64,000 bases of DNA from Candidatus Atribacteria bacterium UBA6251 (lineage in GTDB: Bacteria; Atribacterota; Phoenicimicrobiia; Phoenicimicrobiales; Phoenicimicrobiaceae): contig DJVR01000045.1 in assembly GCA_002441285.1 (NCBI GenBank), positions 1,144-65,143 on the forward strand, read 5' to 3'. Below are positions 4,208-47,168 of this stretch, piece by piece. Position 1 is the stretch's first letter. Each line of letters opens with the position of its first letter. A program made the position numbers and the translations under genes. The notes beneath the pieces are model-generated. The model did no database searches and was not told the origin of the DNA. It was given only the letters and a program-made list of their open reading frames with translations.

Positions 4208-4873
4208 TTAACACCTCAATAAATGCCCATTCCTTTTTAACCACTCCTGCTGCTTTTGATAATCTGTCATCAACATTTTCACCTTACTCCAAAATGCCTT
4301 CGAATGGTTCTTTTCAACTAAATGAGCCAGTTCATGAACCACTACATAATCAACCACTGGTAAAGGCGCCATAATCAAACGCCAAGAGAAATTTAGATTT
4401 CCCTTACCGGAGCAAGAGCCCCATCTTTTTTGAGCCTGGGTAATCTTAATCTTATTGTATTGAAATCCATTCTTTAGGGCATACCACTGGACTCTTTCGA
4501 ATATCTTTTCATAAGCCCTTTCCTTATACCAATCCATAAAAATTTCTTTAGCCTTGGATGAATACTTTTTGGAAAGATAGAATCCATTTTTAAAATTAAG
4601 AGGTACTTCTTGATAGTCTACTAAGTATAAGCGGTAATATTCTCCTAAATAAAGAAATTCTTCTCCATTAATAAATGTCTTCTTAGAAAAGTGTAAATTT
4701 CTTAACTCTATCTCTCTTTTCTTCTCCTCAATCCAATTTTGATGCCTTAGAATAACTCTATCGATAATTTCATCACTGACCCCCAAAGGTGCCCTTACCA
4801 CTAAAGTAGCATCTTCATTTAGCTGGAGAGAAATAGTCTTTCTCTTGGAACGGATTATTTTTTTAATTGCCAT
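4208..4873 (-). CDS. YgjP-like M48/DUF45 zinc metallopeptidase (orphan copy)
   Basis: 221 aa with an HELAHL zinc motif. It is clearly paralogous to the ygjP-like gene at 37029-37739 (shared NLNFSWRLIMAPLPV.DYV.VHEL.HL). No hsd genes are adjacent. Confidence 0.75.
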   Translation of the reverse strand: MAIKKIIRSKRKTISLQLNEDATLVVRAPLGVSDEIIDRVILRHQNWIEEKKREIELRNLHFSKKTFINGEEFLYLGEYYRLYLVDYQEVPLNFKNGFYLSKKYSSKAKEIFMDWYKERAYEKIFERVQWYALKNGFQYNKIKITQAQKRWGSCSGKGNLNFSWRLIMAPLPVVDYVVVHELAHLVEKNHSKAFWSKVKMLMTDYQKQQEWLKRNGHLLRC

Positions 4874-5057: not shown

Positions 5058-5977
5058 GGGGTCAAGTCTTGAAATATCACTTTTTCTCTCCCTCCTCGAT
5101 TCTTTTAATCACTTTGCTCACTGTTGTATAATGCACACCAATATATTCTGCTATTTCTTTTAAGGTATAACCATACCGTAGGCAAGCCTTATACATTGCT
5201 TGGTTTTTTGTCTTCTTGTCTTTGTATTTTAAAATTTCATTTAAGGGCGGTCTGGTTACATAACGCTGCTTTCTGGATATCTCCTTTAAATTTTCTTTAC
5301 CTCTTATTAAGTGTTTTATCTCATCAATAAAATTCTCTTGACCAAGAAACAATTGCCCCTTTATGGCCTTTAAAGGTGATTCTGCTTTTATCCCGGAGAG
5401 TACGAAGGCTTGATATTGTCTAGAGGCTGCTTTTCGCTCTTTGTCAAATTGAGAAAGTATCCAATCTGTGGTTAAACAGGGAATCCCTTTATGGTTGATA
5501 GTTGCCTGATAACTACTCCATCTCCAGTCTCTTGGGTCTTTTACTATTTTTGCCCTTACCGGGTTCAAGACCACATAGCGACAGAGTTCCAGTAAATAGT
5601 TATCTTTATCCACCAGAATCGCTTTGTATCTGCCTTGAAAAAGATGGCCAACTCTTTTATGTCTTTTATTGAATCGTTGGGTATACAGACCATTTAATTG
5701 TCTCATCCCTTTGGATAAGTTACCATAAGGGGTTTCAATAAGCAGATGATAATGGTTGTTCATCAGACAATAGGCATGTAATATAAAGTGATATCTTTTT
5801 ATCACAGAACATAAGACTCTGAGAAAATCAGCAAAGTCCTTCTCGTCAAGAAAGATCGCCTGCCTGGCATTTCCCCTGGAGGAGATGTGATAGAGGGCTC
5901 CATTAAATTCTATCCGTAATGGTCTGGTCATGTTGTCAATATAGCATATACTTTTCTATATTTCAAGACCTGACCCC
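5058..5977. mobile_element. RAYT/IS200-like unit bracketed by a 19-bp inverted repeat
   Basis: GGGGTCAAGTCTTGAAATA (5058-5076) and TATTTCAAGACCTGACCCC (5959-5977) are reverse complements apart from one mismatch. They immediately flank the transposase ORF. Confidence 0.6.
5077..5931 (-). CDS. IS200-like Y1 (HUH) transposase / REP-associated tyrosine transposase with C-terminal HTH
   Basis: 284 aa with the HUH motif NHYHLLI, the downstream Tyr region LCRYVVLNPVRA, and a C-terminal HTH (LKEIAEYIGVHYTTVSKVIKR). Confidence 0.75.
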   Translation of the reverse strand: MTRPLRIEFNGALYHISSRGNARQAIFLDEKDFADFLRVLCSVIKRYHFILHAYCLMNNHYHLLIETPYGNLSKGMRQLNGLYTQRFNKRHKRVGHLFQGRYKAILVDKDNYLLELCRYVVLNPVRAKIVKDPRDWRWSSYQATINHKGIPCLTTDWILSQFDKERKAASRQYQAFVLSGIKAESPLKAIKGQLFLGQENFIDEIKHLIRGKENLKEISRKQRYVTRPPLNEILKYKDKKTKNQAMYKACLRYGYTLKEIAEYIGVHYTTVSKVIKRIEEGEKK

Positions 5978-6098
5978 GTTATTATTTTTAAAAACTTTAT
6001 GGATTCTTTCATCTTTCTTATTCATAGAAACCTCTCTGGACAATACTGTATACACACTATAATAAATGTAAACACTTTTGTCCAGTTTTTATTTTTTA

Positions 6099-6317
6099 TC
6101 ATCTCCCACACTTTTTAATTCTTTCTCTTACCCACTGCCAATCAAGTTTTCCGTAGTTAAAAAATGATTTGAAATTGTCTTTCAACCATTCATAATAATC
6201 ATCTTCAGCATACTTACAGAAAGTCTCTACAAGTGCTTCTTTAGAAATATCTTCAGGTGTTTCCATTTCCTCAAATTCTTCATCTAAGAATTCTCTTACA
6301 ACTTTTTTGTCAAGCAC
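6099..6317 (-). CDS. small strongly acidic hypothetical protein (72 aa)
   Basis: The ORF lies 36 bp downstream of the PD-(D/E)xK gene on the same strand. It is rich in D/E (LDEEFEEMETPEDISKE, AEDDYYE). No family was recognised. Confidence 0.5.
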   Translation of the reverse strand: MLDKKVVREFLDEEFEEMETPEDISKEALVETFCKYAEDDYYEWLKDNFKSFFNYGKLDWQWVRERIKKCGR

Positions 6318-6353
6318 GACACTTCCTCTCCTATTACTGACTAACCTTTCGCA

Positions 6354-7232
6354 CTACAAATATCTTCCACTAATATAATCTATATAATTTCTATGTGTAT
6401 CCCGATATTTCTTTGCTAATTTAATAATTAAATCCTGATAACTCATAGCATGAAAATGAATGCCATCATCTTTAGTTATCCTAATAAATTCCTCTATTTC
6501 CTTATGGTGTTTTGCACTCTCTGGTCCAATCGTATCATACCAAAGATAAAGAAGTCGGAATTTATTCTTACCAAACTTTTCTTTCAATCCTAAAATGTGT
6601 TTTACTAATTGGGCTGGGTGTAAATGGGTAAATATATTATCATCGGGGCTTATTGTTCTTGCAAACTTTAATAAATTTTGTATATCATCCCACACTTTAT
6701 CTAATTCAATATATTTGGTAGAAATCCCAGAATGTGTTCTTGAATAATAAGCTTCTGAAAATTTACATTCTATTGCGAAAACTTTAAATCTTGATTCCGG
6801 AAAATTATTAATAACAACATCAATATTCGGACTACGTAAAAATTTTTCATTTATCGAATACTTAGCTTCAAAATTGATATCCCGAGAGGAAGTATCGCCT
6901 GCATTACAAAATCCACATGCAGTAGCTATAGCAGGAACTTGATTTATCTTTTTCCAGTATTGGAAAATATTCACACCCAATGCGGATGAAGAGTGAACTG
7001 CCTGCATCTTGCAAGGATTTCCGCTTAATTCCCCTCCATCAGCTTTTTCTAAATTCTTTAGTACTGCACTCATTAAAGGTTCAAATAGATTATCATCTAA
7101 CTTTTTAGTATATACTTTACGGCCACGGTTACCCTTACTCCCGATAAGCCCTATATTATTGCGATACGCCCATTGGATTTGCTTGGATATAATATATTCA
7201 TTTGCTTTCATAATTATTCTCCATTGTTTCAA
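6354..7232 (-). CDS. PD-(D/E)xK-type nuclease-like protein
   Basis: 292-aa ORF whose likely start is the MKANEY Met at 7211. It carries an E...PNIDVV...FAIECKFSE pattern that fits the E-PD-ExK nuclease core. Otherwise it is unrecognised. Confidence 0.5.
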   Translation of the reverse strand: MKQWRIIMKANEYIISKQIQWAYRNNIGLIGSKGNRGRKVYTKKLDDNLFEPLMSAVLKNLEKADGGELSGNPCKMQAVHSSSALGVNIFQYWKKINQVPAIATACGFCNAGDTSSRDINFEAKYSINEKFLRSPNIDVVINNFPESRFKVFAIECKFSEAYYSRTHSGISTKYIELDKVWDDIQNLLKFARTISPDDNIFTHLHPAQLVKHILGLKEKFGKNKFRLLYLWYDTIGPESAKHHKEIEEFIRITKDDGIHFHAMSYQDLIIKLAKKYRDTHRNYIDYISGRYL

Positions 7233-7278
7233 CTTATATTATCAATTATTATTAATAAAATCGTTGCCCTGTGACATC

Positions 7279-8010
7279 TTATAAATCTATCGTAATAACT
7301 ACAGGGTTATGGTCACTGTATTTTCGGACTTTATCATTATCTACAACTTCGCAATTTATTAATTTTTTTGAGATTGATTTACTAACAAAAAAGTAATCAT
7401 TTTGCCATTTTACTTTGCTTTTATGGTGTCTGAGGGTTTGAACAGGAAATTTTTTATTTGATAATTTGAAACAATCATTCAAATTGAAATCTTCTAGCCT
7501 ATCAAAAAATATCTTGTGAGAATCATTCTTTTGTATTGGGTCTAATTGTACGCTGGCATTTAAATCTCCACCCAAAACGATATTCCTTTTACCGTCTAGA
7601 TGACCATTAAATATACAGGTTAAATCTGAAAGCATTCTATGAAGATTTGTTATAGAATAACCTTTTGTAGGACCATTACTTTCCATGAGACCATACAATG
7701 AGATAAAGGTTAATTTTTTACCCTCTATGTTAGTATTGGCGATTGAAAAAGCACCTTTGAATTCTGTTTTTATAATTTCTTCAGTCAGTTTATGTTTTTT
7801 ACTATATACGCCTGAACCCCAAGGACGATTACTACCAATCTCATTCCAAACAAGATGTTCTTTATCATCTTCGATTACCTTTGAAGGTCTAGCTTCTTGA
7901 AAAAAGATAATATCTGCGTCGATTTCTTTGAGATAATAATCCCATACTTCTTCAAAATATTTTTTATATTGCCAATAAGCCATATTCCAGGTTGCAATTC
8001 TTATTTTCAT
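7279..8010 (-). CDS. endonuclease/exonuclease/phosphatase (EEP, ExoIII-fold) family nuclease
   Basis: 243 aa with the catalytic set IATWN, IIFFQE, GGDLNA and a C-terminal SDHNPVVITIDL. Confidence 0.8.
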   Translation of the reverse strand: MKIRIATWNMAYWQYKKYFEEVWDYYLKEIDADIIFFQEARPSKVIEDDKEHLVWNEIGSNRPWGSGVYSKKHKLTEEIIKTEFKGAFSIANTNIEGKKLTFISLYGLMESNGPTKGYSITNLHRMLSDLTCIFNGHLDGKRNIVLGGDLNASVQLDPIQKNDSHKIFFDRLEDFNLNDCFKLSNKKFPVQTLRHHKSKVKWQNDYFFVSKSISKKLINCEVVDNDKVRKYSDHNPVVITIDL

Positions 8011-8049
8011 AATATATCTCCGGTGATGTTTAAAGAAAACGGGATGTTC

Positions 8050-8991
8050 CTATTTATTTAGGGAACTGTTGTCCTTTGTCACATTCTTAGCCGAAGCAAT
8101 ATTTCTAATCTCAATTTCATCTAAACAATTTTCTAGTAATATATCAAGTGAATGAAATCCTAAGAACCATAGCCCTGCCGCAAATTTTAATGGATCTATG
8201 TCAGTATCCTTACACTTCTCGATAAGATATTGCTTAATTTCTTCGATACCCTTATCATTGCAACCTAATTTATGAGCTATTTTACTTACCCAAGTATCCA
8301 CCGGGAATGCCCACTCGTAATCTTTATTTACTATTCCCGAGTTTATTAATCCAACATCCCTAATGGTGAAAGTCGCAATTTTATCTGAAATGGCTCTCAT
8401 TTTCGTTAGTTCTTCATATGCAGTTTTCACCCCAGAATTGACTATTGTATTTCTTATGAAATTGTAAATATTTTTATTATCATCTGAAACAAACTTCAAA
8501 ACATCTAAAACCATCATTACGTCCTCATCATTACCTAAGAAAATCTTCTTATTGTAAGTTTCATTGCCCCATTTTACTTCAATTTTTTCTGGAGTAATTA
8601 AGAGTTTTATAATTGGATTTTCTTCTGCTATCTCGTTCCTGAAATCTCTATGCTTAATGCTGTTTCCTCTGCCAATTTTTTTCTCTCTTTTGAATTTCAA
8701 AATACACTTTTTGTTAAAATACTTCTTCTGTTCTTTGATTTTCTCATAATCTCTATCCAAACTTTGGTTAGAGATAGAAAAATAATCTTCTAAGGTTTTA
8801 ATAGTAAAATAATAGTATTCGCTAGATAATTTATCTCGCCTTCCCCTCATAAACGAATGACTAAAAAAGAATTTTAGTGCTTCCCACCAGTTTTCCCGTA
8901 AGTTTTCTTTGTTCCAAAAATCAAGATATTTTCTACAATATCCTTCACCAAGCCATTCAATATTCCTTATGGTTTTATTGTAATTTTTCAT
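8050..8991 (-). CDS. HhH-GPD superfamily (Ogg2/AGOG-like) DNA glycosylase-like protein with novel N-terminal region
   Basis: 313 aa. The C-terminal half shows an HhH-like MRAISDKIATFTIRDVGL, an Asp loop FPVDTWVSKIAHKLG and AAGLWFLGFH, which resemble archaeal Ogg2-type N-glycosylase/DNA lyases. The N-terminal ~190 aa are unrecognised. Confidence 0.45.
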   Translation of the reverse strand: MKNYNKTIRNIEWLGEGYCRKYLDFWNKENLRENWWEALKFFFSHSFMRGRRDKLSSEYYYFTIKTLEDYFSISNQSLDRDYEKIKEQKKYFNKKCILKFKREKKIGRGNSIKHRDFRNEIAEENPIIKLLITPEKIEVKWGNETYNKKIFLGNDEDVMMVLDVLKFVSDDNKNIYNFIRNTIVNSGVKTAYEELTKMRAISDKIATFTIRDVGLINSGIVNKDYEWAFPVDTWVSKIAHKLGCNDKGIEEIKQYLIEKCKDTDIDPLKFAAGLWFLGFHSLDILLENCLDEIEIRNIASAKNVTKDNSSLNK

Positions 8992-9026: not shown

Positions 9027-9150
9027 ATAGAAAATAGGGGCAACACATCCTATTTTTTCTATAATACCTAAAGTTTCAATCATCTAATTAAGAAACTTCT
9101 CAGATCCTATAAGTTTTCCGCCAAAAGTGGCCGAACTCTTGACTTGGTAC
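9027..9150. repeat. direct repeat copy 1 (hairpin plus decayed gene-3'-end remnant)
   Basis: Hairpin ATAGAAAATAGG...CCTATTTTTTCTAT, then ACCTAAAGTTTCAATCATCTAATTAAGAAACTTCTCAGATCCTATAAGTTTTCC. This aligns with 10352-10535 at roughly three quarters identity by eye, with a ~55-bp deletion relative to copy 2. Confidence 0.6.
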
Positions 9151-9239: not shown

Positions 9240-10147
9240 TTAGTCACAATTAAGACTTTCCCAGTCAATATCTTTACGAGGTAAATTGTTATTTAGTGGT
9301 GGAACTTCTCCATGCATTTTAAAATAGCACTTTAATAATCGTTCCTCCTCCTTCTTAATTTCACTTTCATTCCGCAACTTCTTAAAGGAATATTGGATTT
9401 TACAATCATTGTACCTTCCCATAAAGTTAAAGTTGGCATATTTCTTTTCGTGTATAAGCCACACAAAACTGACGGTCCTCTTTAATTTTGCTCTCTGGAA
9501 ATGACGAACCCTGTGCCTTGGCAAGCTTCATCCACTCCCTGAGGATACCCCAGTAGATAGACTGCTCGCGATGAACCAGTAACTTATTAACCCGTCCAAA
9601 GATGTTTCTAAATTCCCAGTAAACGATGAAATCCCAGGGAGTATTCTTGAATCGAACCAACTCGCTCATGTCATGCAGTGAAATCACATGGATGGGTACC
9701 TGTGCTGAGCTGAACAGTGATGGCTCGAGTTCTCTCGGATCATAGGGTTCAGAATCATGCTTGATGACTATTATGCCATGGTAATACTTTACACCCAACG
9801 AGGACCACGATACTTTTCCTCGCCAAGAATTTCTAATATTAGGGACCGAGCCGCTAACAAGTGACTGATAGTTTCTCATTATCTGATAAGTGCCTTCCCT
9901 CAATTTTGCACTGATCCAGTCTTTGCTGGTAGGTTCAACTTTGTTACGAGTTTTAGCTTCGAATATTAGACATACATCCCCGAATATGAATAGCACATCG
10001 CCCAATTCCTGACCCTTGTACCCAGGGTTTGAGGAAGGTCCAAAAACCAAGCAAGTGGGGAGCTAACAGGTAGTAAAGAACATTATCTGTTCGTTCGCCG
10101 ACAGGCATTCTTAGGAGCCTTGCCTTCACCGAATCATCTAGAAACAT
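9240..10147 (-). pseudogene. frameshifted nuclease-like gene (PD-(D/E)xK/NERD-like core)
   Basis: Three overlapping ORF pieces (9953-10147, 9427-10050, 9240-9524) lie in different frames on the same strand. The middle piece carries GDVCLIFEAKT (D...ExK). The segment is visibly more GC-rich than its surroundings. Confidence 0.6.
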
Positions 10148-10351: not shown

Positions 10352-10535
10352 GGATGTTCCATCTTATAGAAAATAGGAACATCCTATTTTTTTATGGTTT
10401 AGCTTTCCATTTTACGAGGTCTTCCTTTAGGACGTCTATCTATATTAAAACCTAAAGCCTCAACCATCCGATTAAGAAACTCCTCAAACCTTATAGTTTT
10501 TCCATTAAAAGCTACAGAATTATTGAACTAACATA
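10352..10535. repeat. direct repeat copy 2 (alternative hairpins plus remnant ORF tail)
   Basis: GGATGTTCC...GGAACATCC and AAAATAGGA...TCCTATTTT hairpins. On the minus strand a remnant tail reads ...FNGKTIRFEEFLNRMVEALGFNIDRRPKGRPRKMES*. It is homologous to 9027-9150. Confidence 0.6.
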
Positions 10536-11508: not shown

Positions 11509-12312
11509 TCAGCTACTATATCTATCTTCTCTTTTCTTTAATTCCTTTTCAACTTCTTCTTTAATGGCAACTTCGGTTAAAAGTTTATATTTTGAATCTT
11601 TTGGTCTTCGAAAGGGAACCTTGGTATCAAATATATCTCCAAATAATGAATTCATTAACACAATCCGATAATCAAATAAATAGCATTGAATAGTAAAAAG
11701 ATTATCACTTATTTCATCGCATTTCTTAGTAAACTCAGAATTGCCTTTTTTGGTTAATAAATCTTTAATTGTTTTCTGAAAAAAGTATTTTTGAAAATCA
11801 ATAATTAATTCTTTAACATCTTCGGTTTTAAACTGAATATACTTTTTTAAGTGGTCAAATTGAATTACCCCGATTTCATTTGATTCAATAATCAAGCTAA
11901 GATTTGATATGCCTTTTAAAATGTTTACAACTTGTTGATTTATTTGAAAATCAATTTCAACTTTATTGAATTTTTGTATTTCTGAATATTTTTCATGCAA
12001 TAATAATTTACTCTTTAAATCAATATAATAAACCGAAATATTACCTATTAAATGTGAAAAGTTATAAATCTCTTTATTTATTTCTCTAAATGCATCTATT
12101 TCTAAAGATTTTTTAAACTCTTCTTTCTTAGCAATTTGATTATCTCTTCTGTTTTTTTGTAAATAATTTATTGCTATTAGTAATGCGATTAACCATCCAA
12201 CGATATTACTAAAATTAGTAAATTTTCCATGATAAAAATATTCTATTATCCCATAAGTTAATATAATCAATAAGGATATGAATATAAAAATATTATCCCA
12301 AAATACTTTCAT
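11509..12312 (-). CDS. hypothetical membrane-anchored protein (two N-terminal TM helices)
   Basis: 267 aa with hydrophobic segments IFIFISLLIILTYGII and IVGWLIALLIAINYL, followed by a helical soluble region. It starts 31 bp after the res stop. Confidence 0.55.
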   Translation of the reverse strand: MKVFWDNIFIFISLLIILTYGIIEYFYHGKFTNFSNIVGWLIALLIAINYLQKNRRDNQIAKKEEFKKSLEIDAFREINKEIYNFSHLIGNISVYYIDLKSKLLLHEKYSEIQKFNKVEIDFQINQQVVNILKGISNLSLIIESNEIGVIQFDHLKKYIQFKTEDVKELIIDFQKYFFQKTIKDLLTKKGNSEFTKKCDEISDNLFTIQCYLFDYRIVLMNSLFGDIFDTKVPFRRPKDSKYKLLTEVAIKEEVEKELKKREDRYSS

Positions 12313-17348: not shown

Positions 17349-20300
17349 TTAATTTTCTTTAAAACTTAATTTTTTAACTAATAAATTATTTAAAATATCC
17401 AATTTTGTTTGATTTTTTTCTTGAGGAAGTAGAATGAACTTATTAATCCTTAAAAAACTATATCCGTAGCTTTCCAATTCCAGCTGGCGCTGGATATCGT
17501 ATTCAAGATATTCCTGAGAAAAATTATGTTTAGTAATTATTTCAGGATTTTTAGTATGATATTCTATTCCATCATATTCTAATATAAGAGATTTTTCTTC
17601 TCCGTGATGGGAAAAGATTATTAGAAAATCCACCCGATATTTAGGGATATATTTATTGTATGTTTTTTGTATATATTCCCCGATGGGGAATTGGGCAATT
17701 ATTTTTATTTTGTTCCGATTGGTTTTATAAAAATCAGTCTGAATTAATAAATTATAGAGGTCTTTTTCTGCAGGAGAACCAAATATTGTCTCATCAGTTA
17801 TATAATTATCAATAGCACTTTTTTGAATTTCTTGATAAAATTTTAAGGCATCACCCATGCGTGTATTAGAATACTCTTCCAAAGGCATACTGTGTACTAT
17901 AACCATAGTATCTTTAGCCCGGCTAAATCCTACATTTAATCTTTGCATCTTTAAACTGCGAATAGAATCTGCTCTTCCTTCTATTACCGGATAGATAGTA
18001 CGTAGATCTGCATTACCAATTGTTTTATCTTCTACCAAAGAATAATAAACTATATCTCTTTCTTCTCCCTGCACATCACCTACAAACCAGATTACTAATT
18101 TATGTTTTTTAGATAATCGATGGTAATTAGGTAATTCTTTTCGTAATATTTCCTCCATTCGATATTTTTGTTCTCTAAAGGAAGTAATAATACCAATTGT
18201 ACCTTTAAATCCATTGGCAATTATGTTTTGTATATCTTCTTTTATAGCTATTATTTCATCTAAGTTAACATTATTTCCTGAATTGCCTTTGGTATCCACT
18301 TTAATAAAACGTAAAACTTCATTAATGGGTTTAGTTCGAATGCGGTTAACGATTAAGGGAATCTGGCTGGGTCGATAGAAATATTCATTAGAATATTCAA
18401 TTATCTCCGGGAAACTCCGGAAATGAATATCCAAAGAAGTACTATAATTTTTTAGAGCTTTAGCAAAATTGAGCGTAGATGTCCGAATACTAAAAGTTTT
18501 TAACCATTCTTTAGTACCTTCTTCGGGCTTGTATATTGGCTCAATAAATTGCTCGTCCGGATTTACATCTAATGATGCTTCGGCTGTTATTTTTTCTTTT
18601 TCTTTTTCATCAAAGGCTATCTGATAATCTTTAGCATAATTATCTAAAATTTCTTTAAAATATTGATCTGAATATCTCTTGCTAACATTATATGCCCCCA
18701 CTGCTCCATATTGATATTCGTCACCAAAGACTACCATTTGCTTGGCCCTTAATAATAGAGAGATTGATTCGGCAATAGATACCTGAGAAGCTTCATCTAT
18801 TACTAAAAGGTCAATAGAATCTTCTTCCATTGGAAAGTATTTGGAAATTAAATCTGGTTCGGCAATAATGCAGGAAATATTTTCTAATAGAACTTTTAAT
18901 TCTTTAGGTGTCAATCTTTTGCCTGCTTTCATGCTAACGATAATTCTTTCTTTTTCAGTGGAAAAATTATTGAGATTTTTTATCCGCTGGTCATTAATAT
19001 TTTCTAATTTTTTATGGAGTGTTTGGTAATATTCTTTGATGACTTCTTGGTCAGGGAGATTAAATACTTCTTTTTGATTTAATTCTGTAAATAATTGGAT
19101 ATAATTTAAAACTTTATTGGGAATATCTTTCTCTGAAAATAACTCGTTTAAACTTTGTAAATCATCAAAATATATACCTACTTCTGATAGAATTGATGAA
19201 AAATATTTCTTTAAGATTTGCAGAGAAGAAAGGGTGTCGGAGTTTAAATTATCAATCAAATCTTTTATTTTACTTAACAGATGGAAAAGTTGTTTAATGT
19301 CTTCTTTAGTTAAATTTAATGATTGTAATGCTGGTGTTAACAATTTACGATTCGAAATATAGGTTTTAATATCTTTTAATTTAGAAATTCCAGATTTAAG
19401 TTCTTTTATAGTAATTGTTGATTTTTCTTTAGAGGCTAAATAAAAAATATTAGTTAATATACTATCGTATTCCAATTTTTCTAATAAATTTAAATTATTA
19501 TGGAATTCTTGATTATTTTTTATTTTCATTTTTATGAACATAGAACGGTATTTTAATTTTTCTTTATCTGTAAAAATTAAAGAATCGGGTTTTAAATTTT
19601 CGGCTATCTTAGAAAATAATTCTGAAAATTGGTCGAGATTTTTAAAATCATAATTCTTTAGATTATTTACTTCTGTTTTTTTTAGCGGTAAATTTTTTAT
19701 GTTTTGACAAGCGGTTAACCAATCAACTATTAGGCTTGATTTTTGGTAAAGAAAATTTAATTGATTTAAACTTAAATTACTTAAATCGTTTTCTTTTATT
19801 TTAATGATAAGCTCTCTTATAAGATCAAAATTAATATTTTCGTCTTTTTGTAGCTTATGAGGAGATTGATTTTCTTTAATTATGGATTTTTCTTGTAATT
19901 CTTTTTCTATTTGTTCGAAATTTAATAATTTAGAAATATATTCTTGGTAATTTTCGGAATTAGCCCAAAAATCATTATTCTGTTCTTCAATAATTTGATG
20001 CCAATTAGCAAGGTCCTTTTCAACCGCTTCTTCATTAAATTGATTAACTCTTTTATTTGATGCTGAAATAACCGGGTCAGAGAGTGTATTCTCAAAATTG
20101 TTAATGCTAATATCGTCTCGAGATATTCTTAAGATAGAAGGCTTAGACTCCGGATGCAATGCTCTAAATTTATCAGTCATCATCCGGTCAATTACATCGA
20201 GGGCTGCTTTTTTGTGAGAAGTAACCACAATTGATTTATTTTTCTGATTGGCCCAATAAGTAATCGCAGCTATTGTATAAGATTTTCCTGTTCCGGGGGG

Positions 20301-21665
20301 ACCATCTACTACAATTATATTATTTTGCTCATTTTCCAAAGCAATAAGTATTCTCTTTTGAGGATTATTTAAAGAAAGGGGGATGGTGGATAATAAATTA
20401 TTTACTGATTTCCGAGGGTAATGTTTGTTGAATTCTTCATCTACTTTGTCAGTTGTATTTTTAACATTACCAGAAATATAATTTTTAATAAGGCCGAGAA
20501 ATTTATCACCTTTTCCTGCATCAAGATGGGTAATTAATTCTGAATAATCTAATAATTTGCGGTTTTCTTTCTGTACTACCTGCAGACCGATGCGAAAGCT
20601 TATATTTGGATAATTGGGTAACTGAAATGATTTAAAACAATATACCAATAAAAATTCATCAAATATATTGTAGGTATTCTGTAAATGGTTTTCTATACTT
20701 CCTAAATAATATTTGGCATCTATGAATCTGGCTGCACGAGGAGTAGTTAAAATATTTTCGAACTCAAAAGAATTAATAGCCGGGGTATTAATAATCACTA
20801 TATCGTGTTTACTTCTAATAATTAATTTGTCAGCCAATTCGTCAATTTCAATTTCTATGAGAAAAAGAGGATACTTATCAATTTTTTCTTTTTTTTCTTC
20901 TTTTTCTAAATATATTTCATGAAAAAAGATATAGGCATTTCCTATCCCAACAAAGGGAATATATTTTCTAATAGTGCCATATAGGTCGAATATAGTAAGG
21001 TCAAACGATGCATCTAATATCTGCTTTTTTATTTGGGAAAAATATTTTTCTACATTGTTTTCTTTCTGTGCTATTTTTTGTAAAGAATCAAATATTTCTT
21101 GCTCAATACTTTGAGGATTTAAAGTTGATAAGGGCTTGCTCTTGAATTTTAATTCTGTCTTTAATTTTTCTATCTTTTGTTTTTGCAATTTGTAGAGAAT
21201 TTCTTTGGCGGTATTTCTAAAGGCTAAGTTGAATTTTCGAGAGCCTTCTGAGAAGATCTGTTTTCGAAATTCCTTTTTTTGTTCTATGTTATCAACTACT
21301 TGATTCCCTTCTTCTCCTGATAATATAATTTTGTTTCCATATAATTTTAGTAACCTATCCTCAGATTGTTTAATGCAGCTTTTGAGATATTCTAAATTGT
21401 AATCAGATTCGAGTTTATCAATTAATTTTTGTTTAAACTCGTCTTCGCTTACACTAACTTTGTAATCTCCTCTTTTTATTTCAAAACTAAACTTTTCTCC
21501 TTTTTTAATAGAATCCAATATTTTTTTCTGAAAATCTGGAAAAACAGATAAATCTGAGGTTAAAGAATCATCAGTCCATTTATAGTCTATTTTCTTTTGA
21601 AAATTAAAGCGGGTTTCGGTATAAGTGGCGAAGTAATTTAAAATGCTCTTGGCAAATTTTTTCAT
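17349..21665 (-). CDS. SF1B (Upf1/DNA2-like, AAA_11/AAA_12) helicase fused to a C-terminal DUF559/Vsr-like endonuclease domain
   Basis: 1438 aa with Walker A VVDGPPGTGKSYTIAAI, Walker B LLVIDEASQV, GDEYQ, VQGEERDIVYYS and RLNVGFSRAKD. The C-terminus KYRVDFLIIF...LILEYDGIEYH...SYGYSFLRI is DUF559-like. The N-terminal ~440 aa are unassigned. Confidence 0.8.
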   Translation of the reverse strand: MKKFAKSILNYFATYTETRFNFQKKIDYKWTDDSLTSDLSVFPDFQKKILDSIKKGEKFSFEIKRGDYKVSVSEDEFKQKLIDKLESDYNLEYLKSCIKQSEDRLLKLYGNKIILSGEEGNQVVDNIEQKKEFRKQIFSEGSRKFNLAFRNTAKEILYKLQKQKIEKLKTELKFKSKPLSTLNPQSIEQEIFDSLQKIAQKENNVEKYFSQIKKQILDASFDLTIFDLYGTIRKYIPFVGIGNAYIFFHEIYLEKEEKKEKIDKYPLFLIEIEIDELADKLIIRSKHDIVIINTPAINSFEFENILTTPRAARFIDAKYYLGSIENHLQNTYNIFDEFLLVYCFKSFQLPNYPNISFRIGLQVVQKENRKLLDYSELITHLDAGKGDKFLGLIKNYISGNVKNTTDKVDEEFNKHYPRKSVNNLLSTIPLSLNNPQKRILIALENEQNNIIVVDGPPGTGKSYTIAAITYWANQKNKSIVVTSHKKAALDVIDRMMTDKFRALHPESKPSILRISRDDISINNFENTLSDPVISASNKRVNQFNEEAVEKDLANWHQIIEEQNNDFWANSENYQEYISKLLNFEQIEKELQEKSIIKENQSPHKLQKDENINFDLIRELIIKIKENDLSNLSLNQLNFLYQKSSLIVDWLTACQNIKNLPLKKTEVNNLKNYDFKNLDQFSELFSKIAENLKPDSLIFTDKEKLKYRSMFIKMKIKNNQEFHNNLNLLEKLEYDSILTNIFYLASKEKSTITIKELKSGISKLKDIKTYISNRKLLTPALQSLNLTKEDIKQLFHLLSKIKDLIDNLNSDTLSSLQILKKYFSSILSEVGIYFDDLQSLNELFSEKDIPNKVLNYIQLFTELNQKEVFNLPDQEVIKEYYQTLHKKLENINDQRIKNLNNFSTEKERIIVSMKAGKRLTPKELKVLLENISCIIAEPDLISKYFPMEEDSIDLLVIDEASQVSIAESISLLLRAKQMVVFGDEYQYGAVGAYNVSKRYSDQYFKEILDNYAKDYQIAFDEKEKEKITAEASLDVNPDEQFIEPIYKPEEGTKEWLKTFSIRTSTLNFAKALKNYSTSLDIHFRSFPEIIEYSNEYFYRPSQIPLIVNRIRTKPINEVLRFIKVDTKGNSGNNVNLDEIIAIKEDIQNIIANGFKGTIGIITSFREQKYRMEEILRKELPNYHRLSKKHKLVIWFVGDVQGEERDIVYYSLVEDKTIGNADLRTIYPVIEGRADSIRSLKMQRLNVGFSRAKDTMVIVHSMPLEEYSNTRMGDALKFYQEIQKSAIDNYITDETIFGSPAEKDLYNLLIQTDFYKTNRNKIKIIAQFPIGEYIQKTYNKYIPKYRVDFLIIFSHHGEEKSLILEYDGIEYHTKNPEIITKHNFSQEYLEYDIQRQLELESYGYSFLRINKFILLPQEKNQTKLDILNNLLVKKLSFKEN

Positions 21666-21754
21666 GATTATTAATTTATTCTCCTATTTTTATTAAATTT
21701 TATAATGTTACTTTTAATAATTTTGGTAATAAATAATGATATTATTATCTATTT

Positions 21755-23083
21755 CTAAAAATCCTCTAAGGATTTATTACTTTCATCAATTTTTTCTATT
21801 AAATCCTTCAGCTCTTTGCTTGTATATACTATGGACAGATTAATACTATCATCTTTCCCCCACAATACTAATTCTATCTCTGTATCAGCAGTCTCCCATC
21901 TTGAGATAACATTTAAATGCCCTAAACTAATAGCCAGTCCCCAATTTTTTGAATCATTCCTATAAAGATTGTTGTTCCAATTTTGCTGGTCTATAAGTGG
22001 AGTTCCATATTTTTTAGTTAAGTTTTCCTTCAAATTAGAATATTCCGAAATATAATCATTTTTGTTGCTAAGGGATTTATCAAAATAATAAAACCAATAC
22101 GCTGTTTGGGTAAGTTTTCCATTTGCAAATTCATATAAAATATAACATGGAATTCCATTAGCATACCCTTGAAAAATCAATATATTATCTTTGCTATAAT
22201 CCTTTAAAAATATACTTACATTTTCTTCACATTGTATTACCTCTGTTTGGTTCATTCCCCAGTTTGTTTTCCTAAAGTTATATTGTTTTGCTAATTCTAC
22301 ATCTGTCTTAGAAATTATTTGTGATTGACTTGCTTTACTAATAGTGCTCTCATTTTTTTCTTGTTTATCTTTTTCTTTTATTTTATCTATCAAGTAATTT
22401 ATATTTTCATTTTCTTTTCTTGCAGCTGTTTCCTTAATGATTTCTTTAGTCCCTTCACCAACATAGCTCATTTCCGGGAATTTTTTTAAAATACGTTTTA
22501 CTATTTCACTGCCATATTTTTCTATGTCAGATTTTCTGGTAGAGGTAAACCCTGCCCCTTCCCAAACTTTTTCACAAGACCTAGATAAATTTTCTAAAAA
22601 ACTGATATATACATAAGGATAGTAGCGATTTTTTGTTACCGTAATACTGGTCCAAGAGCCACTACCAAAAGTATAGACATTACCAGAAAAATGAGTCATT
22701 CCTATATGACCGGAATAGGTAGTGGTTTTATTATTCGACTGATATATTGGTATACTTTCAGTAGTTTTAGCAAATTCATTGCTGGAAAATAAAAAAATTA
22801 CCAAATCTGCTTCTAAAAAATTTTCCTTATATTTATATCCTTTTTCTTCTAATATTTGAATAATTTCTTTTTGCAGATGTTTATTAGGTAAATAATTGGG
22901 ATATAATTTGATCTTATCATCTTCATAAAAACCAAAGGACCTATATAAACTATAATTGGTAAATGGATTATCGTGAGTTTCGATATTGTAAAAAGTAAAC
23001 AATGAACAGTAACTTAGAGGGGTATAACTTATCAGTATCAAAAATATTAATATAATAAAGGTTAATAAATATTTTCTTTTCAT
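21755..23083 (-). CDS. hypothetical secreted protein or lipoprotein
   Basis: 442 aa with an N-terminal signal-like segment MKRKYLLTFIILIFLILISYTPLSYC. No family was recognised. Confidence 0.55.
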   Translation of the reverse strand: MKRKYLLTFIILIFLILISYTPLSYCSLFTFYNIETHDNPFTNYSLYRSFGFYEDDKIKLYPNYLPNKHLQKEIIQILEEKGYKYKENFLEADLVIFLFSSNEFAKTTESIPIYQSNNKTTTYSGHIGMTHFSGNVYTFGSGSWTSITVTKNRYYPYVYISFLENLSRSCEKVWEGAGFTSTRKSDIEKYGSEIVKRILKKFPEMSYVGEGTKEIIKETAARKENENINYLIDKIKEKDKQEKNESTISKASQSQIISKTDVELAKQYNFRKTNWGMNQTEVIQCEENVSIFLKDYSKDNILIFQGYANGIPCYILYEFANGKLTQTAYWFYYFDKSLSNKNDYISEYSNLKENLTKKYGTPLIDQQNWNNNLYRNDSKNWGLAISLGHLNVISRWETADTEIELVLWGKDDSINLSIVYTSKELKDLIEKIDESNKSLEDF

Positions 23084-37028: not shown

Positions 37029-37739
37029 TTATAACCTTAACAAATAGTTGTTCTTCTTCAGCCAGTCATTATATTTTTCATAGTCAGGGAGCAACATTTT
37101 AACCTTATTCCAGAATGCTTTCGTATGATTTCTCTCTTCAAGATGAACAAGTTCATGGACAATAACATAATCTATTACGGGCAAAGGAGCCATAATAAGT
37201 CTCCATGAAAAATTCAAATTTCCATTAATAGAAGAAGATCCCCATCTTTTTTGTGCACCTGTAATATTTATCTTATTGAATTTAAAACCTTTTTTATTTG
37301 CATAAATTTTAATTCTTTCTGATATTTTTTCGTAAGCCATCTTTTTATACCATTCAACAAATAAATCTCTTGCCTTCGGTAAGGTATCTTTTGAAAGATA
37401 AAATCTATTTTCAAATTTCAATGGTACTTCCATATCATCCACAATTTCTAATTTGTAGTATCGTCCAAGATAGAGAAAACCTTCACCGCTTATAAATTCC
37501 TTGGGAACAAATTTTGGGTCTCTTAAGGCTATTTCCATTTTCTTTTGTTTAATCCAATCTTTGTGTTTAGATACAACTCTCATAATGGTTTCATTGCTAA
37601 CATCAAAAGGCGCTTTTACAATTAGTGTGGCATCATCTGTTATCTGTAAGGCTATACTTCTCCTTTTTGTTCTTATGATTTCTTTTATTTCTATATCTCC
37701 TACATTCATAGTCCTATCTCCTATATATATGCCCGGCAA
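37029..37739 (-). CDS. YgjP-like M48/DUF45 zinc metallopeptidase (type I R-M associated)
   Basis: 236 aa with an HELVHL motif. It overlaps the 3' end of hsdR by 26 nt. Confidence 0.75.
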   Translation of the reverse strand: MPGIYIGDRTMNVGDIEIKEIIRTKRRSIALQITDDATLIVKAPFDVSNETIMRVVSKHKDWIKQKKMEIALRDPKFVPKEFISGEGFLYLGRYYKLEIVDDMEVPLKFENRFYLSKDTLPKARDLFVEWYKKMAYEKISERIKIYANKKGFKFNKINITGAQKRWGSSSINGNLNFSWRLIMAPLPVIDYVIVHELVHLEERNHTKAFWNKVKMLLPDYEKYNDWLKKNNYLLRL

Positions 37740-40700
37740 GTTCCATCAATCTCTGGGCAATAACATTTCTTTTGTCAAAAATATTTGAATAGACATAAGG
37801 TGCCTGTTCTTCTCTTACAGATAGTATTTCTCCTTTACCCGTTTTATCAGTCTTTCCATATTTACCCAGCAGATGGGATATTATATATGCCTTGAGCTTC
37901 TTTTGTTTTGAATTGCTCTCCCAAAAGCCAACCACCTGAATCTCCCTACTTATAATTTCTATTATATCCCTTGTTAATTCAACCAAATGATTAATCTCCT
38001 TTTCACTCATCTCTTGGATAGAAATTTTTCCATATATTTCTTGCTTTAAAAGTCCAAAAAACGGCATCTCTTTCTTGGGGTCAAATCCAAAGATTTGTTC
38101 AGCTTCTCTTCCCTTTTTCAGTGATTCTCTGATAATTTCAAGTTCTTTTGCAAGAAGTTTCCAATTCTCTTGGTATGCTTCAAGAATCTGTTTCAGTCTA
38201 TCAGAAAATCGCTCGTAAAACTCAGGGTCTTCTTCGTAGTGTTTTCCTATATGCTCCACAATGGCACATTTGAGTTCTTCAGCTTTCGCTTTGTCTGACT
38301 TCTTCTTTAATTTTGTAATAAATTTATCTTCTAAAAGGGGGGTTGGTGGTATTTTAGGATTCACTCCTTTTGAAATAAGATACTCTTCAACAATCTCTCT
38401 TATCTTTTTACTTGCATCCCTTATGCTTAGTTTATCATCTCTGTATCTACTTCTCGCCGATTCCGCTATAAAACTAAGAACCTTTAAATCAGTAACATAT
38501 TTTAATACCTTTGGGTCGGGGAGCACAGTATCTATTGCTTTATTAAATTTTCTTACAAGCATGATGAATTCATTTCTTACTTCTTCATCAACCAAAAGGT
38601 CTATGCATTCGTCTATATTATCCCTCCAGTTTTCTATTTTATATCTCTTAAAGAAATCATTGATAAGATTGTGTTTGAATTTTAATTCATCAATACTTTT
38701 GGCTTTGTTTTTGACAACTTGTGTGATCTCCTCTATATCCTCATCAGCATAAATAGCAAGAGCCTCTCTTAAATGCTTTAAGACTCCAACATAATCTACG
38801 ACAAAACCACAAGATTTGTTTTTGTAAACTCTGTTCACCCTTGCAATTGCCTGCAACAGATTATGTTCTTTTATCACATTATCTAAATACATAACTTGTT
38901 CAATTGGTGCATCAAAACCAGTAATCAGCATGCTCTGAACAACCAAAATACCAACCTCACCTGAGATACCGCCATCGTCAGTTTTATCAAAAGGAAGCTT
39001 GAAACTTTTTATTATCCTTTCCTGCTTGTTTTCGTCTGTATAAGGGTGATATTCAGGTGGATCGTTTGCCAGTCCTGATATAACTACACCAACTTTTAAT
39101 TTCTCAAGTTGAGATACATCTATCCTGTTTGCGTTGTCTTTTCTTAACCCTTCTATTTTTTTCTTTAATGCATTTTCAAGGGCTTCTTTATATCTAATAG
39201 CCGCAAGTCTTGAGGCAGTTACTACCTGAGCCTTAAATCCATTTGGAAAAACATGAGTGACATAGTGCTCTATCATATCATTTGCCTTATCTCTTATCAC
39301 ATTTATATCTTCCAGATATGCACACCATGTGTATCTTCCTATAATTTTTGCTTTCTCTTCTGCCTCAACTATTGAGAAGACTTCTTCAAACTTTGCATTT
39401 GCTGCCTCTTCATCGGAAAGCTCTGCACCATGAACTCTTCCTTCATAAACAATGTCAACCGTTACACCATCTTCAACCGATTGTTTTATATTGTATTTGT
39501 CTATATACTCACCGAAGGTCATTTCAGTTTTCGCAATTGGTGTACCTGTGAACGCAACTTTTACAGCATTGGGCAGGGCTTTTTTCAAATTTGCCCCTAA
39601 TAGTTTATACTGAGTCCTATGGGCTTCATCAATCATAATAAGAATGTTGTGCGAGGTATTAAGCACAGGGAACTCTCTTTCAAGTTCTCTCTCCTGATAC
39701 TTGTGAATCATGCCCATAACCAGGTCTGGAGTATTTGTTCTCAAAAGTTCCTGAAGTTCTCTTATACTTCCTGCAAGATTTACAGTGAAACCTACACTTT
39801 TTGATGTTTCATTTAATTGCTTCTGCAAGTCTTTTCTATCTGTTACAAAAACCACCTTGAAGTTGCTGAGTTCAGGGTTGTGGTAGAGTTCCCTCACAGC
39901 ATACATCATTGTTAAAGATTTTCCGGAGCCCTGAGTATGCCAGATAATCCCCCCTTTTTCTTCTGGAGTGCTTCCTTCTTTTATCTTCTTTACCATCTTC
40001 TTAACAGCCCTGAACTGCTGGTATCTTGGTACAACTTTGATAACACCAGCCTTGGGGTCTTCTTTAAAGATTGTAAAGTTGTGAAGTATATCAAGAAGAT
40101 TCTCCTTTGTTAATACTCCCTGCGTTAATACCTGCTGGCTTGTTATGTTTTTATCTGGAGTTATATCCGAGAGTTTATAAGGATAAGGGTCTTTCCACTC
40201 AACAAAATGCTCATATTCTGTGGTTATAGTGCCATATTTTGCCACCTGGTTTGAAGTAGCAATCATAAAGAAGTTATACCAGAAGAGTTTTTCATCCCCT
40301 TCCTTTACCCCTCTTCTATTGGAATACCTCATAAGCTGAGTAATCGCTTCTCCAATGGGGTCTGCAATGGCTGGAGATTTACATTCCACAGCCACTAATG
40401 GCAAGCCATTTACGAATAAAACAACGTCTGGAACTATATGTTTCTCCGTTCCTGAAACATTTACTTTAAACTGAGATATGGCAACAAAGGAGTTATTTTC
40501 AGGATTTCTGAAGTCTATAAATCTAACCGTTGGACTTTTCTCTCCTGTCTTACGGTTTTCTGAGACAGAAGTATTTTCAAGAAGTAAATCATGAATCTCA
40601 TGGTTTGCCTCTAAAAGAGAGTTTGCTTGAGGTGTTGTTACTCTTCGGACAACCTCATTTATCTGGTCATCTTCAATCCATGGATTTATCTTTTTGATTG

Positions 40701-40917
40701 ATTGTCTTAAAACATTTTCAAGAATCACTTCTCTAAAACTTTCACGGAATTTTATGCTTTCGCCAAAAATAGGCTCTTCTTTACTATCAAAACCTTCAAT
40801 CTCTTTTACATCTTCAGTGTCTGCTTTATTCTGCCTGTAAATTTTCCAGCCAAGTTTTTGAAGATGGGCAAGAAAGGGATTTTCAGCGTAATGTTCTTCA
40901 TCAAGCAGTGTGAACAT
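37714..40917 (-). CDS. hsdR: type I restriction enzyme R subunit
   Basis: 1067 aa with HsdR N-terminal nuclease features (VVLFVNGLPLVAVECK), SF2 motifs (WHTQGSGKSLTM, MIDEAHRTQ) and a C-terminal helical domain. Confidence 0.9.
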   Translation of the reverse strand: MFTLLDEEHYAENPFLAHLQKLGWKIYRQNKADTEDVKEIEGFDSKEEPIFGESIKFRESFREVILENVLRQSIKKINPWIEDDQINEVVRRVTTPQANSLLEANHEIHDLLLENTSVSENRKTGEKSPTVRFIDFRNPENNSFVAISQFKVNVSGTEKHIVPDVVLFVNGLPLVAVECKSPAIADPIGEAITQLMRYSNRRGVKEGDEKLFWYNFFMIATSNQVAKYGTITTEYEHFVEWKDPYPYKLSDITPDKNITSQQVLTQGVLTKENLLDILHNFTIFKEDPKAGVIKVVPRYQQFRAVKKMVKKIKEGSTPEEKGGIIWHTQGSGKSLTMMYAVRELYHNPELSNFKVVFVTDRKDLQKQLNETSKSVGFTVNLAGSIRELQELLRTNTPDLVMGMIHKYQERELEREFPVLNTSHNILIMIDEAHRTQYKLLGANLKKALPNAVKVAFTGTPIAKTEMTFGEYIDKYNIKQSVEDGVTVDIVYEGRVHGAELSDEEAANAKFEEVFSIVEAEEKAKIIGRYTWCAYLEDINVIRDKANDMIEHYVTHVFPNGFKAQVVTASRLAAIRYKEALENALKKKIEGLRKDNANRIDVSQLEKLKVGVVISGLANDPPEYHPYTDENKQERIIKSFKLPFDKTDDGGISGEVGILVVQSMLITGFDAPIEQVMYLDNVIKEHNLLQAIARVNRVYKNKSCGFVVDYVGVLKHLREALAIYADEDIEEITQVVKNKAKSIDELKFKHNLINDFFKRYKIENWRDNIDECIDLLVDEEVRNEFIMLVRKFNKAIDTVLPDPKVLKYVTDLKVLSFIAESARSRYRDDKLSIRDASKKIREIVEEYLISKGVNPKIPPTPLLEDKFITKLKKKSDKAKAEELKCAIVEHIGKHYEEDPEFYERFSDRLKQILEAYQENWKLLAKELEIIRESLKKGREAEQIFGFDPKKEMPFFGLLKQEIYGKISIQEMSEKEINHLVELTRDIIEIISREIQVVGFWESNSKQKKLKAYIISHLLGKYGKTDKTGKGEILSVREEQAPYVYSNIFDKRNVIAQRLMELAGHIYRR

Positions 40918-42256: not shown

Positions 42257-42298
42257 AATTCACTCTTCATCATTCCTTTGCATAACATGACATAAATT

Positions 42299-42347
42299 GT
42301 CCCCTTTATGTCCCCTTTATGTCCCCTTTGTCCCTTTTGTGTCCCTT
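42299..42347. repeat. degenerate ~11-bp tandem repeat (GTCCCCTTTAT-type, about 5 units)
   Basis: GTCCC restarts at 42299, 42310, 42321, 42330 and 42341. The tract spans the 3' end of the AlbA_2 gene and lies 43-91 nt upstream of the hsdS start. Confidence 0.8.
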
Positions 42348-47149: not shown

Positions 47150-47168
47150 TTATGTACAGTGCTCATTA

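Follow-up and report, generated by a model that had tools for sequence, protein, structure and literature searches.

Within a 64,000-nucleotide stretch of the genome of Candidatus Atribacteria bacterium UBA6251 (contig DJVR01000045.1, positions 1,144 to 65,143; hereafter the window), four closely spaced open reading frames, ORF1 to ORF4, follow one another on the minus strand. A first-pass annotation of this DNA had taken them for a single base-excision defence system. Our analysis points to a different reading, to which we assign a probability of about 55%: the block would be a defence-island mosaic in which ORF1 is a stand-alone defence glycosylase/lyase resembling the Dag enzymes, whereas ORF2 and ORF3 are non-obligate neighbours. 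The protein folds, the catalytic residues, the genomic contexts and the missing co-occurrence of the four genes are established here.

The ORF1 family

As a single sequence ORF1 matched nothing in Pfam, NCBIfam, PADLOC, PHROGs or the PDB. It nevertheless belongs to a family of 255 clusters at 90% identity and, in a profile search, 962 clusters at 50% identity, scattered across archaeal and bacterial phyla and lacking near-identical neighbours. It is thus a sizeable, cross-domain and unannotated family, represented by no Pfam, NCBIfam, PADLOC or PHROGs model. No ORF1 homologue was found in plasmids or phage genomes, nor in viral contigs, which were scanned both with single proteins and with an alignment.

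A profile built from 66 diverse members matched the Ogg protein of Clostridium acetobutylicum (CacOgg, 3f0z) with an E-value of 8.7e-5. Significance was first reached with 66 sequences; a 32-sequence profile gave only a weak match to EndoIII. The residues R51, S56, D157, K204, P230 and D232 were invariant in all 66 members. K204 aligns to the lysine of the VGPKVA motif of CacOgg, a position occupied by glutamine in the entries 3i0w, 3i0x and 3f10, and D232 is part of a family motif, fPiDtWV, which aligns to FPVDTWV of CacOgg. Retention of the lysine of the helix-hairpin-helix (HhH) motif is typical of bifunctional glycosylase/beta-lyases such as OGG1 and Nth, and ORF1 is therefore predicted to be bifunctional as well.

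The AlphaFold2 (AF2) model of ORF1 (pLDDT 88.6, pTM 0.85) was compared with known structures by Foldseek. The best PDB folds were CacOgg, MagIII, OGG1, SsOgg, AGOG, MutY and EndoIII, almost all of the HhH-GPD type, with probabilities of 0.97-1.0, TM-scores to the target of 0.53-0.60 and E-values of only 1e-2 to 1e-1. The only meaningful viral match was again an EndoIII (probability 1.0, TM-scores 0.48/0.60, 301 columns). This evidence for a two-lobed HhH-GPD fold is supportive, although not decisive on its own. Together with the profile match to CacOgg it bears out the Ogg-type assignment that had originally been made by eye. The remark that the first ~190 residues resemble nothing has to be revised: alignments to small HhH-GPD enzymes cover about 290-300 columns, so that in the model the assignment extends to the whole protein, its N-terminal half included. 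Two elements of ORF1 go beyond the core fold, an RGRRDxLS motif that is conserved in the N-terminal part and a beta-hairpin formed by residues 135-150. It misses the gathering score of the Pfam HhH-GPD family (PF00730), and its distant relatives reach sub-threshold E-values only (0.013 and 0.17). The miss is a sign of a divergent family and not of exclusion from the HhH-GPD superfamily.

In loci L014 (467-2481), L070 and L019 two ORF1-family paralogues lie side by side in convergent or divergent orientation; the pair in L014 is found beside a tyrosine integrase.

Distribution of the four genes

In an obligate system of the kind envisaged by the first-pass annotation ORF1 would excise a modified phage base, ORF2 would cleave the resulting apurinic/apyrimidinic (AP) sites, ORF3 would introduce double-strand breaks and ORF4 would serve as inhibitor or immunity factor. 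Several features make such an obligate system conceivable. The genes are co-directional, their spacers measure 36-67 bp, each has a ribosome-binding site, no terminator lies between them, and the enzymology is coherent. Moreover, at least six contigs carry the block in identical form. All of these belong to the same lineage, however, and their ORF1 genes are 100% identical; outside them the four-gene block was not found.

The co-occurrence of the genes was examined in about 60 loci with ORF1 homologues (~45 of them non-redundant), comprising 13 loci from GTDB genomes, 46 metagenomic loci and the contigs of four further homologues. A tblastn screen with all four window proteins (E<=1e-3) detected relatives of ORF2 or ORF4 in none of the ~60 loci. 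A relative of ORF3 was detected once, in L073, where it is 45% identical and located 750 bp downstream of the ORF1 homologue, with a DUF5615 gene in between. Even where ORF1 itself is well conserved the other genes are missing: in L034 the 85%-identical ORF1 homologue is followed by an ADP-ribosyl glycohydrolase (ARG) gene and a PDDEXK_1 nuclease gene instead of ORF2-ORF4.

The picture is the same from the side of the other genes. Homologues of ORF2 (77-84% identity) were located directly after a type I HsdR gene in a KwaAB island, alone among housekeeping genes, or beside HEPN_AbiV. Homologues of ORF3 (69-86% identity) adjoined ARPP-1 together with a PLD-SNF2/methyltransferase pair (locus L026), DarT-Macro together with an amidohydrolase, or an HNH protein, or they stood alone. 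Outside the lineage of the window, homologues of ORF4 were restricted to L029/L030, where they are separated from an ORF3 homologue by 3.2 kb of housekeeping genes on the opposite strand and where ORF1 and ORF2 are absent. Because co-occurrence is lacking from the ORF1, ORF2 and ORF3 sides alike, the block is a lineage-specific juxtaposition of independently moving genes and not a conserved system. In L029 (2253-10351) DarT-Macro (DarTG-like), the amidohydrolase and the ORF3 homologue (74% identical) are found together, with the ORF4 homologue (78%) 3.2 kb further on. This arrangement may be a rearranged counterpart of the window island in a related genome.

The claim that the four genes make up one system was thus contradicted by the very check that had been chosen beforehand as its refuting test. 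The PADLOC check pointed in the same direction, since no model matched any of the four proteins. It is true that no described system has this composition, as had been noted, but the point carries little weight for a composition confined to one lineage. A further argument against the obligate system is that protection by the known defence glycosylase Brig1 was unaffected when the host AP endonucleases XthA and Nfo were deleted (Hossain et al. 2024, PMC11078745). A loose recurrence of glycosylase and nuclease speaks for the obligate system, namely the ORF1 and ORF3 homologues of L073 and the neighbourhood of ORF1 homologue, Dag-like gene and ExoIII in L008. Taken together, we consider an obligate four-gene system quite improbable.

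Genomic neighbourhoods of ORF1 homologues

A pooled Pfam scan of the 135 proteins encoded within 2.3 kb of ORF1 homologues in the ~45 non-redundant loci revealed no dominant partner. The most frequent families were phage integrase (3 occurrences) and ARG, IS110, ResIII, rve, DUF2779 and ParE (2 each), and housekeeping genes were mixed among them. When neighbouring ORFs were compared all against all by BLAST, integrases and redundant contigs were the only recurrent partners.

Where the flanks were usable, roughly every second locus had restriction-modification (R-M), integrase, insertion sequence (IS) or toxin genes among its neighbours. Type III R-M genes lie beside ORF1 in the window and beside its homologues in L047, where Mod-Res is directly upstream, and L024. 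Mrr and type III Mod were found near the homologues in L024/L025 (Mrr in L025), and a type I R-M system (N6_Mtase) and a YgjP-like gene near the homologue in L023. In L008, from Methanobacterium ferruginis, a McrC-like type IV gene (DUF2357+PDDEXK_7) is located directly upstream of the ORF1 homologue. Tyrosine integrases adjoin the homologues in L014, L018, L046 and L067, and IS110 and IS200 elements also occur as neighbours.

Some of these contexts would also suit a repair enzyme. A glycosylase/lyase and ExoIII form the canonical pair of base-excision repair (BER), and the HhH glycosylase Mig.MthI is encoded beside an R-M system. ORF1 and ORF2 could accordingly be imagined as an ordinary or auxiliary BER pair, or ORF1 as a repair enzyme associated with an R-M system in the manner of Mig.MthI or Vsr and correcting lesions connected with methylated bases, the more so as R-M systems often abut ORF1 homologues and some homologues reside among housekeeping genes. 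The patchy distribution across phyla without near-identical neighbours, the small size of the family (962 clusters) and the frequency of integrases and IS elements in its surroundings argue against this explanation. Likewise, ORF2 scores far under the Xth cut-off (34 versus 99 bits), and the adjacent methyltransferases are of the N6/N4 type (PF01555 in the window, N6_Mtase in L023), for which deamination repair has no obvious use. A repair function in either form therefore appears improbable to us.

Nevertheless, several points weigh against ORF1 as a stand-alone defence enzyme. In a DPANN archaeon (L007/L020) the ORF1 homologue is located between IleRS and a ribosomal protein operon, and in L013 it is near ribosomal-protein-like genes; both placements fit a repair role. 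Many of the metagenomic contigs are short, so more distant partner genes may have escaped detection, and tblastn at the threshold used overlooks non-orthologous analogues, such as the ExoIII gene situated two genes from the ORF1 homologue in L008. A loose functional coupling of glycosylase and nuclease is also possible, in view of the ORF1 and ORF3 homologues in L073 and of two loci that combine ARG with a PD-(D/E)xK nuclease.

These two loci are L034 and L017. In both (L034:6001-9537 and L017:4018-7356) an ARG gene (PF03747; 6e-76 and 1.7e-37) lies directly downstream of the ORF1 homologue on the same strand. The ORF1 homologues are 85% and 39% identical to ORF1, respectively, and are only distant relatives of one another; the two ARG proteins are 22% identical to each other. 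A PD-(D/E)xK nuclease was observed in each, of the PDDEXK_1 family in L034 and, with a frameshift, of the DUF2779 family in L017. ORF1 homologue, ARG and PD-(D/E)xK nuclease might possibly constitute a three-gene module, parallel to the ARG encoded on the Brig3 fragment considered below.

Relation to known systems

The closest functional precedent for ORF1 is provided by the Dag families (Dag1, Dag2 and further numbered ones). These stand-alone, mobile and very divergent enzymes of the HhH superfamily destroy phage DNA that carries 7-deazaguanine modifications (Getz et al. 2025, bioRxiv 10.1101/2025.10.29.685425). According to the same study, the bifunctional Dag1 depends on a Lys, an Asp and a Trp residue, and mobile-element markers are present in ~42% of Dag windows as compared to ~3% for housekeeping glycosylases. 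ORF1 and the Dags have much in common. Both are stand-alone, divergent HhH-superfamily enzymes that are missed by Pfam, and the ORF1 family, too, consists of stand-alone genes in mobile, defence-rich and horizontally transferred contexts. Both show a Lys/Asp pair with a nearby Trp (K118, D184 and W188 in Dag1; K204, D232 and W234 in ORF1).

The two types of gene even meet in M. ferruginis. The gene at L008:8869-9531 (220/230 aa), right after the ORF1 homologue, corresponds by its coordinates to BDZ68778.1, which is among the homologues of the validated Dag defence glycosylases (Getz et al. 2025, bioRxiv 10.1101/2025.10.29.685425). The ORF1 homologue thus directly adjoins a listed Dag-family gene. 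A relative of this gene also comes after the ORF1 homologue in L023 (6001-7193). The order of genes in L008 (3103-10344, NZ_AP027738.1) is a large protein, the McrC-like protein, the ORF1 homologue, the Dag-family homologue and a canonical ExoIII; two unrelated genes for HhH-type glycosylases are hence adjacent, with an AP endonuclease gene alongside.

On the other hand, the ORF1 family is not detectably related to BDZ68778.1 (hhalign probability 0.3%), and in the portion of the Dag homologue lists that was covered the ORF1 homologue of M. ferruginis does not appear. ORF1 also differs from Dag1 in the spacing of the catalytic residues and is longer (313 aa), containing the RGRRDxLS motif and the beta-hairpin insert. 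By analogy ORF1 probably works like a Dag and probably represents a separate family. The suggestion that it might be an enzyme of base-excision immunity gained from this comparison, since the Dags offer a precedent in the same kind of genomic context.

Immunity through excision of modified phage bases is also the concept of the Brig enzymes. Brig1 has the uracil-DNA glycosylase (UDG) fold and excises alpha-glucosyl-5-hydroxymethylcytosine (PMC11078745). Brig3 is able to excise 5-hydroxymethylcytosine after BapA has removed the glucose, and the same fragment encodes a predicted ADP-ribosyl glycohydrolase (PMC13160076). A glycosylase helped by a neighbour and accompanied by a predicted ADP-ribosyl glycohydrolase parallels the ORF1 homologues with ARG in L034 and L017. 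In contrast to ORF1, an HhH-GPD protein with the lyase Lys, the Brig enzymes are monofunctional members of the UDG superfamily. In END nucleases an EndoIII/Ogg-like domain that recognises hypermodified phage DNA is coupled to a nuclease (PMC12191111); there the domain is catalytically inactive and forms one polypeptide with the nuclease, whereas in ORF1, a protein of its own, Lys and Asp are retained. From canonical BER (Ogg/Nth plus Xth), with which ORF1 and ORF2 share the two folds and the catalytic residues, they differ by falling far under the curated family thresholds, by their patchy distribution and by their location in an island.

The neighbourhood of ORF3 leads to yet another group of systems. 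In the part of the account of Iyer et al. (2022, PMC9503650) considered here, ARG-centred systems with a REase effector are proposed to counter viral ADP-ribosylation, mainly on modified proteins. ORF3 belongs to the described REase family (PF22558), its homologue in L026 adjoins ARPP-1, and the effector called 'rapidly evolving REase' in that account appears to be this family. The same part of the account names neither HhH-GPD nor EEP partners. Such systems have an ARG core gene, mostly accompanied by a phosphatase and a Nudix or WYL regulator. The scanned ORFs of the window included no ARG, phosphatase, Nudix/WYL regulator, chaperone or ARPP; an ARG was encountered only at L034 and L017.

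It could be proposed from these links that ORF1 and ORF3 participate in an ARG-centred network in which ADP-ribosylated or sugar-decorated bases are excised in concert with ARGs or a REase-ARP effector. Two independent ORF1 loci contain an ARG directly downstream on the same strand, each with a PD-(D/E)xK nuclease; the ORF3 family is named for its ARPP association in ARG systems and stands beside DarT-Macro in L029; and glycosylase, de-glucosylase BapA and predicted ADP-ribosyl glycohydrolase are combined on the Brig3 fragment (PMC13160076). Yet ARG was present in just 2 of the ~45 non-redundant ORF1 loci, it is missing, like ARPP, among the scanned ORFs of the window, and the ARG systems were, in the part of the source considered, proposed to act chiefly on modified proteins (PMC9503650). 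Furthermore, no HhH-GPD enzyme acting on ADP-ribosylated DNA is known biochemically. We regard the network as unlikely. The ORF1 family would in that case form the DNA base-excision arm of the ARG/ARPP/REase-ARP network and remove ADP-ribosylated or sugar-decorated bases, an assignment we likewise hold to be unlikely; its helpers would be de-decorating enzymes of the ARG fold in L034 and L017, or REase-ARP and ExoIII-type nucleases in the window and in L073.

The description of BapA mentions two beta-barrels and a Gln whose function was probed (PMC13160076), and that of ARPP, in the part used here, a duplicated beta-meander with an inserted beta-barrel, conserved Cys and Gln residues and a predicted action on sugar moieties (PMC9503650). 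As far as these descriptions go, which are the only basis of the comparison, the two sound alike.

Proposed mode of action and implications

If ORF1 is a stand-alone defence enzyme, it would flip out a non-canonical, phage-modified base, as Dag glycosylases do, cut the N-glycosidic bond and then nick the strand by beta-elimination via Lys204. The damage would fall on heavily modified foreign DNA, and host DNA would be spared. ORF2 and ORF3 would be separately mobile DNA nucleases that came to lie beside ORF1 and probably share its transcript. At the nicks left by ORF1 in this lineage, the 3' ends could be cleaned or extended by ORF2, which might also cleave AP sites or resect DNA in the 3'-5' direction. 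As an endonuclease ORF3 could introduce further cuts, so that both might amplify the damage. Any cooperation among the three would be opportunistic and not obligate. The substrate, the defence function and the cooperation among the four genes we infer.

The concept of base-excision immunity as such is already known, as stand-alone HhH defence glycosylases were published in 2025 (bioRxiv 10.1101/2025.10.29.685425). The remaining interest lies in an unannotated cross-domain HhH-GPD family, its defence-island context and its suggestive ARG, Dag and REase-ARP neighbours. Should the ORF1 family consist of defence glycosylases, about 960 archaeal and bacterial clusters would join the enzymes of base-excision immunity, a class that would then be represented in archaea and in lineages of anaerobic sediments, well beyond Vibrio integrons and soil cosmids. 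The ARG-fold hydrolases, the Dag-family gene and the REase-ARP neighbours suggest a division of labour, with removal or recognition of a DNA decoration by one enzyme and excision of the base by a second. If the family were instead the base-excision arm of the ARG network, anti-ADP-ribosylation systems would be tied to immunity at the DNA level and HhH-GPD enzymes would gain a new substrate class. An operon-like block that is an accretion of independently mobile single-gene cassettes also calls for caution when systems are deduced from adjacency in a single genome.

ORF2, ORF3 and ORF4

ORF2 matched Exo_endo_phos (PF03372) with an E-value of 1.8e-7 (31.6 bits, gathering cut-off 24.5) and possesses the complete catalytic set WN, QE, GDLN, NDY and SDHN, of which QE, GDLN, NDY and SDHN are invariant in its family. 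The earlier typing as an EEP/ExoIII protein was therefore correct. The family profile matched Bacillus subtilis ExoA (5cfe) at 3e-7, and the nearest solved structures are B. subtilis ExoA, Neisseria NExo and the LINE-1 endonuclease. By sequence, ORF2 falls into the DNA-acting ExoIII/APE1 clade. It remained below the NCBIfam cut-offs for Xth (TIGR00633, 34.1 versus 99.05 bits; TIGR00195, 23.5 versus 182.55 bits) and is classified as a distinct EEP subfamily rather than Xth itself.

The description of ORF3 as a PD-(D/E)xK nuclease also held: it matched REase-ARP, a name that refers to ARPP, over its full length (PF22558; 1.4e-13, 51.5 bits, cut-off 27), and its core residues E115, D131 and E148-C-K150 are invariant. 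Its profile had no match in the PDB. Plasmids yielded just two distant matches to ORF3 (25-29% identity), of which one lies in the neighbourhood of HEPN/HipA genes.

ORF4, rightly described as a highly acidic protein of 72 aa and suggested in the first-pass annotation as a possible inhibitor or DNA mimic, has a pI of 4.66, a net charge of -6.5 and 16 Asp/Glu among its first 45 residues. Profile searches assigned it to no family. Four short helices are predicted; the single-sequence AF2 model was poor (pLDDT 64.5).

Organisation of the locus and the surrounding island

The features of the locus are compiled in Table 1. The four minus-strand ORFs and the motifs quoted for them in the first-pass annotation were all found again at the positions and in the translations given there, with spacers of 39 bp (ORF1-ORF2), 46 bp (ORF2-ORF3) and 36 bp (ORF3-ORF4). 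The second spacer grows to 67 bp if ORF3 begins at the ATG at 7211. The mechanical start of ORF3 is a TTG at 7232 (6354-7232, 292 aa), but the ATG is most likely the true start because it is preceded by GGAG and because the resulting 285 aa are the length of essentially all homologues.

Table 1. Genes and sequence elements in and around the four-gene block (positions in the window)
Feature	Position	Strand	Size or structure	Assignment or remark
ORF1	8050-8991	-	313 aa	predicted bifunctional HhH-GPD-superfamily DNA glycosylase/AP-lyase, unannotated family
ORF2	7279-8010	-	243 aa	ExoIII-clade EEP nuclease
ORF3	6354-7211	-	285 aa from ATG	PD-(D/E)xK nuclease, Pfam REase-ARP (PF22558)
ORF4	6099-6317	-	72 aa, GTG start after GGAGAGGAAG	small acidic, predicted four-helix protein
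Imperfect hairpin upstream of ORF1	9027-9062	-	12-bp stem, one bulge, -7.7 kcal/mol	carries one AATAGG...CCTATT motif copy
Motif half-copy AAATAGGAACATCC	8033-8055	-		ORF1-ORF2 spacer; ORF1 thus flanked by motif copies on both sides
Stem-loop CTGGACAA...TTGTCCAG	6030-6085	-	-19.2 kcal/mol	just past ORF4 stop
Y1 (IS200/RAYT-type) transposase element	5058-5977	-	gene 5077-5931	transposase match 6.5e-14

Clear Shine-Dalgarno sequences precede ORF2, ORF3 and ORF4, whereas ORF1 has only a weaker AGG ~10 nt upstream. In a terminator scan of the region from 5.0 to 10.2 kb the sole terminator-like site was inside ORF3 and none was intergenic. Co-transcription of the four genes is plausible on these signals, and the stem-loop behind ORF4 is a possible end of the transcription unit. 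The hairpin upstream of ORF1, which had been thought to insulate the block, does exist, but it was rejected as a terminator, since it is not followed by a T-run and was not called in the scan; 'insulated' was thus an overstatement.

The hairpin contains one copy of a palindromic motif, AAATAGGA..TCCTATTT, which occurs at three intergenic sites in the window, the two of Table 1 and a third at 10371-10393. ORF1 and the pair of overlapping ORFs on its upstream side are bracketed by the copies, and the motif is confined to contigs of the lineage of the window. It might mark the boundary of a cassette or serve as an operator, although the statistics are weak. A recombination site was not called, three copies in one lineage being too little.

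The RAYT element that had been noticed downstream of the block was confirmed as a Y1 transposase. The element ends in 20-nt inverted repeats (5058-5077 and 5958-5977) that are 95% complementary. As it has its own terminal inverted repeats, it is a separate mobile element outside the four-gene block. The transposase carries a C-terminal helix-turn-helix. L029/L031 contain a fragment of a 75%-identical copy close to the ORF3 homologue, and in L017 an IS200-like gene is located near the ORF1 homologue.

Upstream of ORF1 follow, in this order, two overlapping ORFs (9240-10050), a DUF2188 gene, two genes without family, the type III Res and Mod genes and a helicase gene. The type III R-M system reported for the island proved real, both Mod (PF01555) and Res being confirmed. 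The supposed broken nuclease gene corresponds to the two overlapping ORFs, which matched no family in Pfam, PADLOC and PHROGs scans, and its identity as a nuclease could not be verified. The helicase (1438 aa, AAA_11/AAA_12, Upf1-like) is encoded together with a 442-aa protein without family at 17349-23083, directly upstream of type III Mod, and both are probably part of the island of ORF1. The island is limited by cobalamin genes on one side and by PmbA/TldD genes on the other.

A 267-aa protein with an N-terminal hydrophobic segment is encoded at 11509-12312. A 44%-identical homologue exists in L047 (8079-8888), so that in L047 as in the window this protein is found in a neighbourhood of type III Mod-Res and ORF1 or its homologue. 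It may be an accessory of the type III R-M system.

The window contains a second defence region at 37714-48932, comprising type I HsdR (37714-40917), two intervening ORFs, HsdM (43725-46208) and a DUF4209/DUF7380 protein (47169-48932). A gene for a YgjP-like metallopeptidase stands alone at 4208-4873, beyond the transposase; the YgjP-like gene of L023 (5523-5882) is situated between the type I R-M system and the ORF1 homologue.

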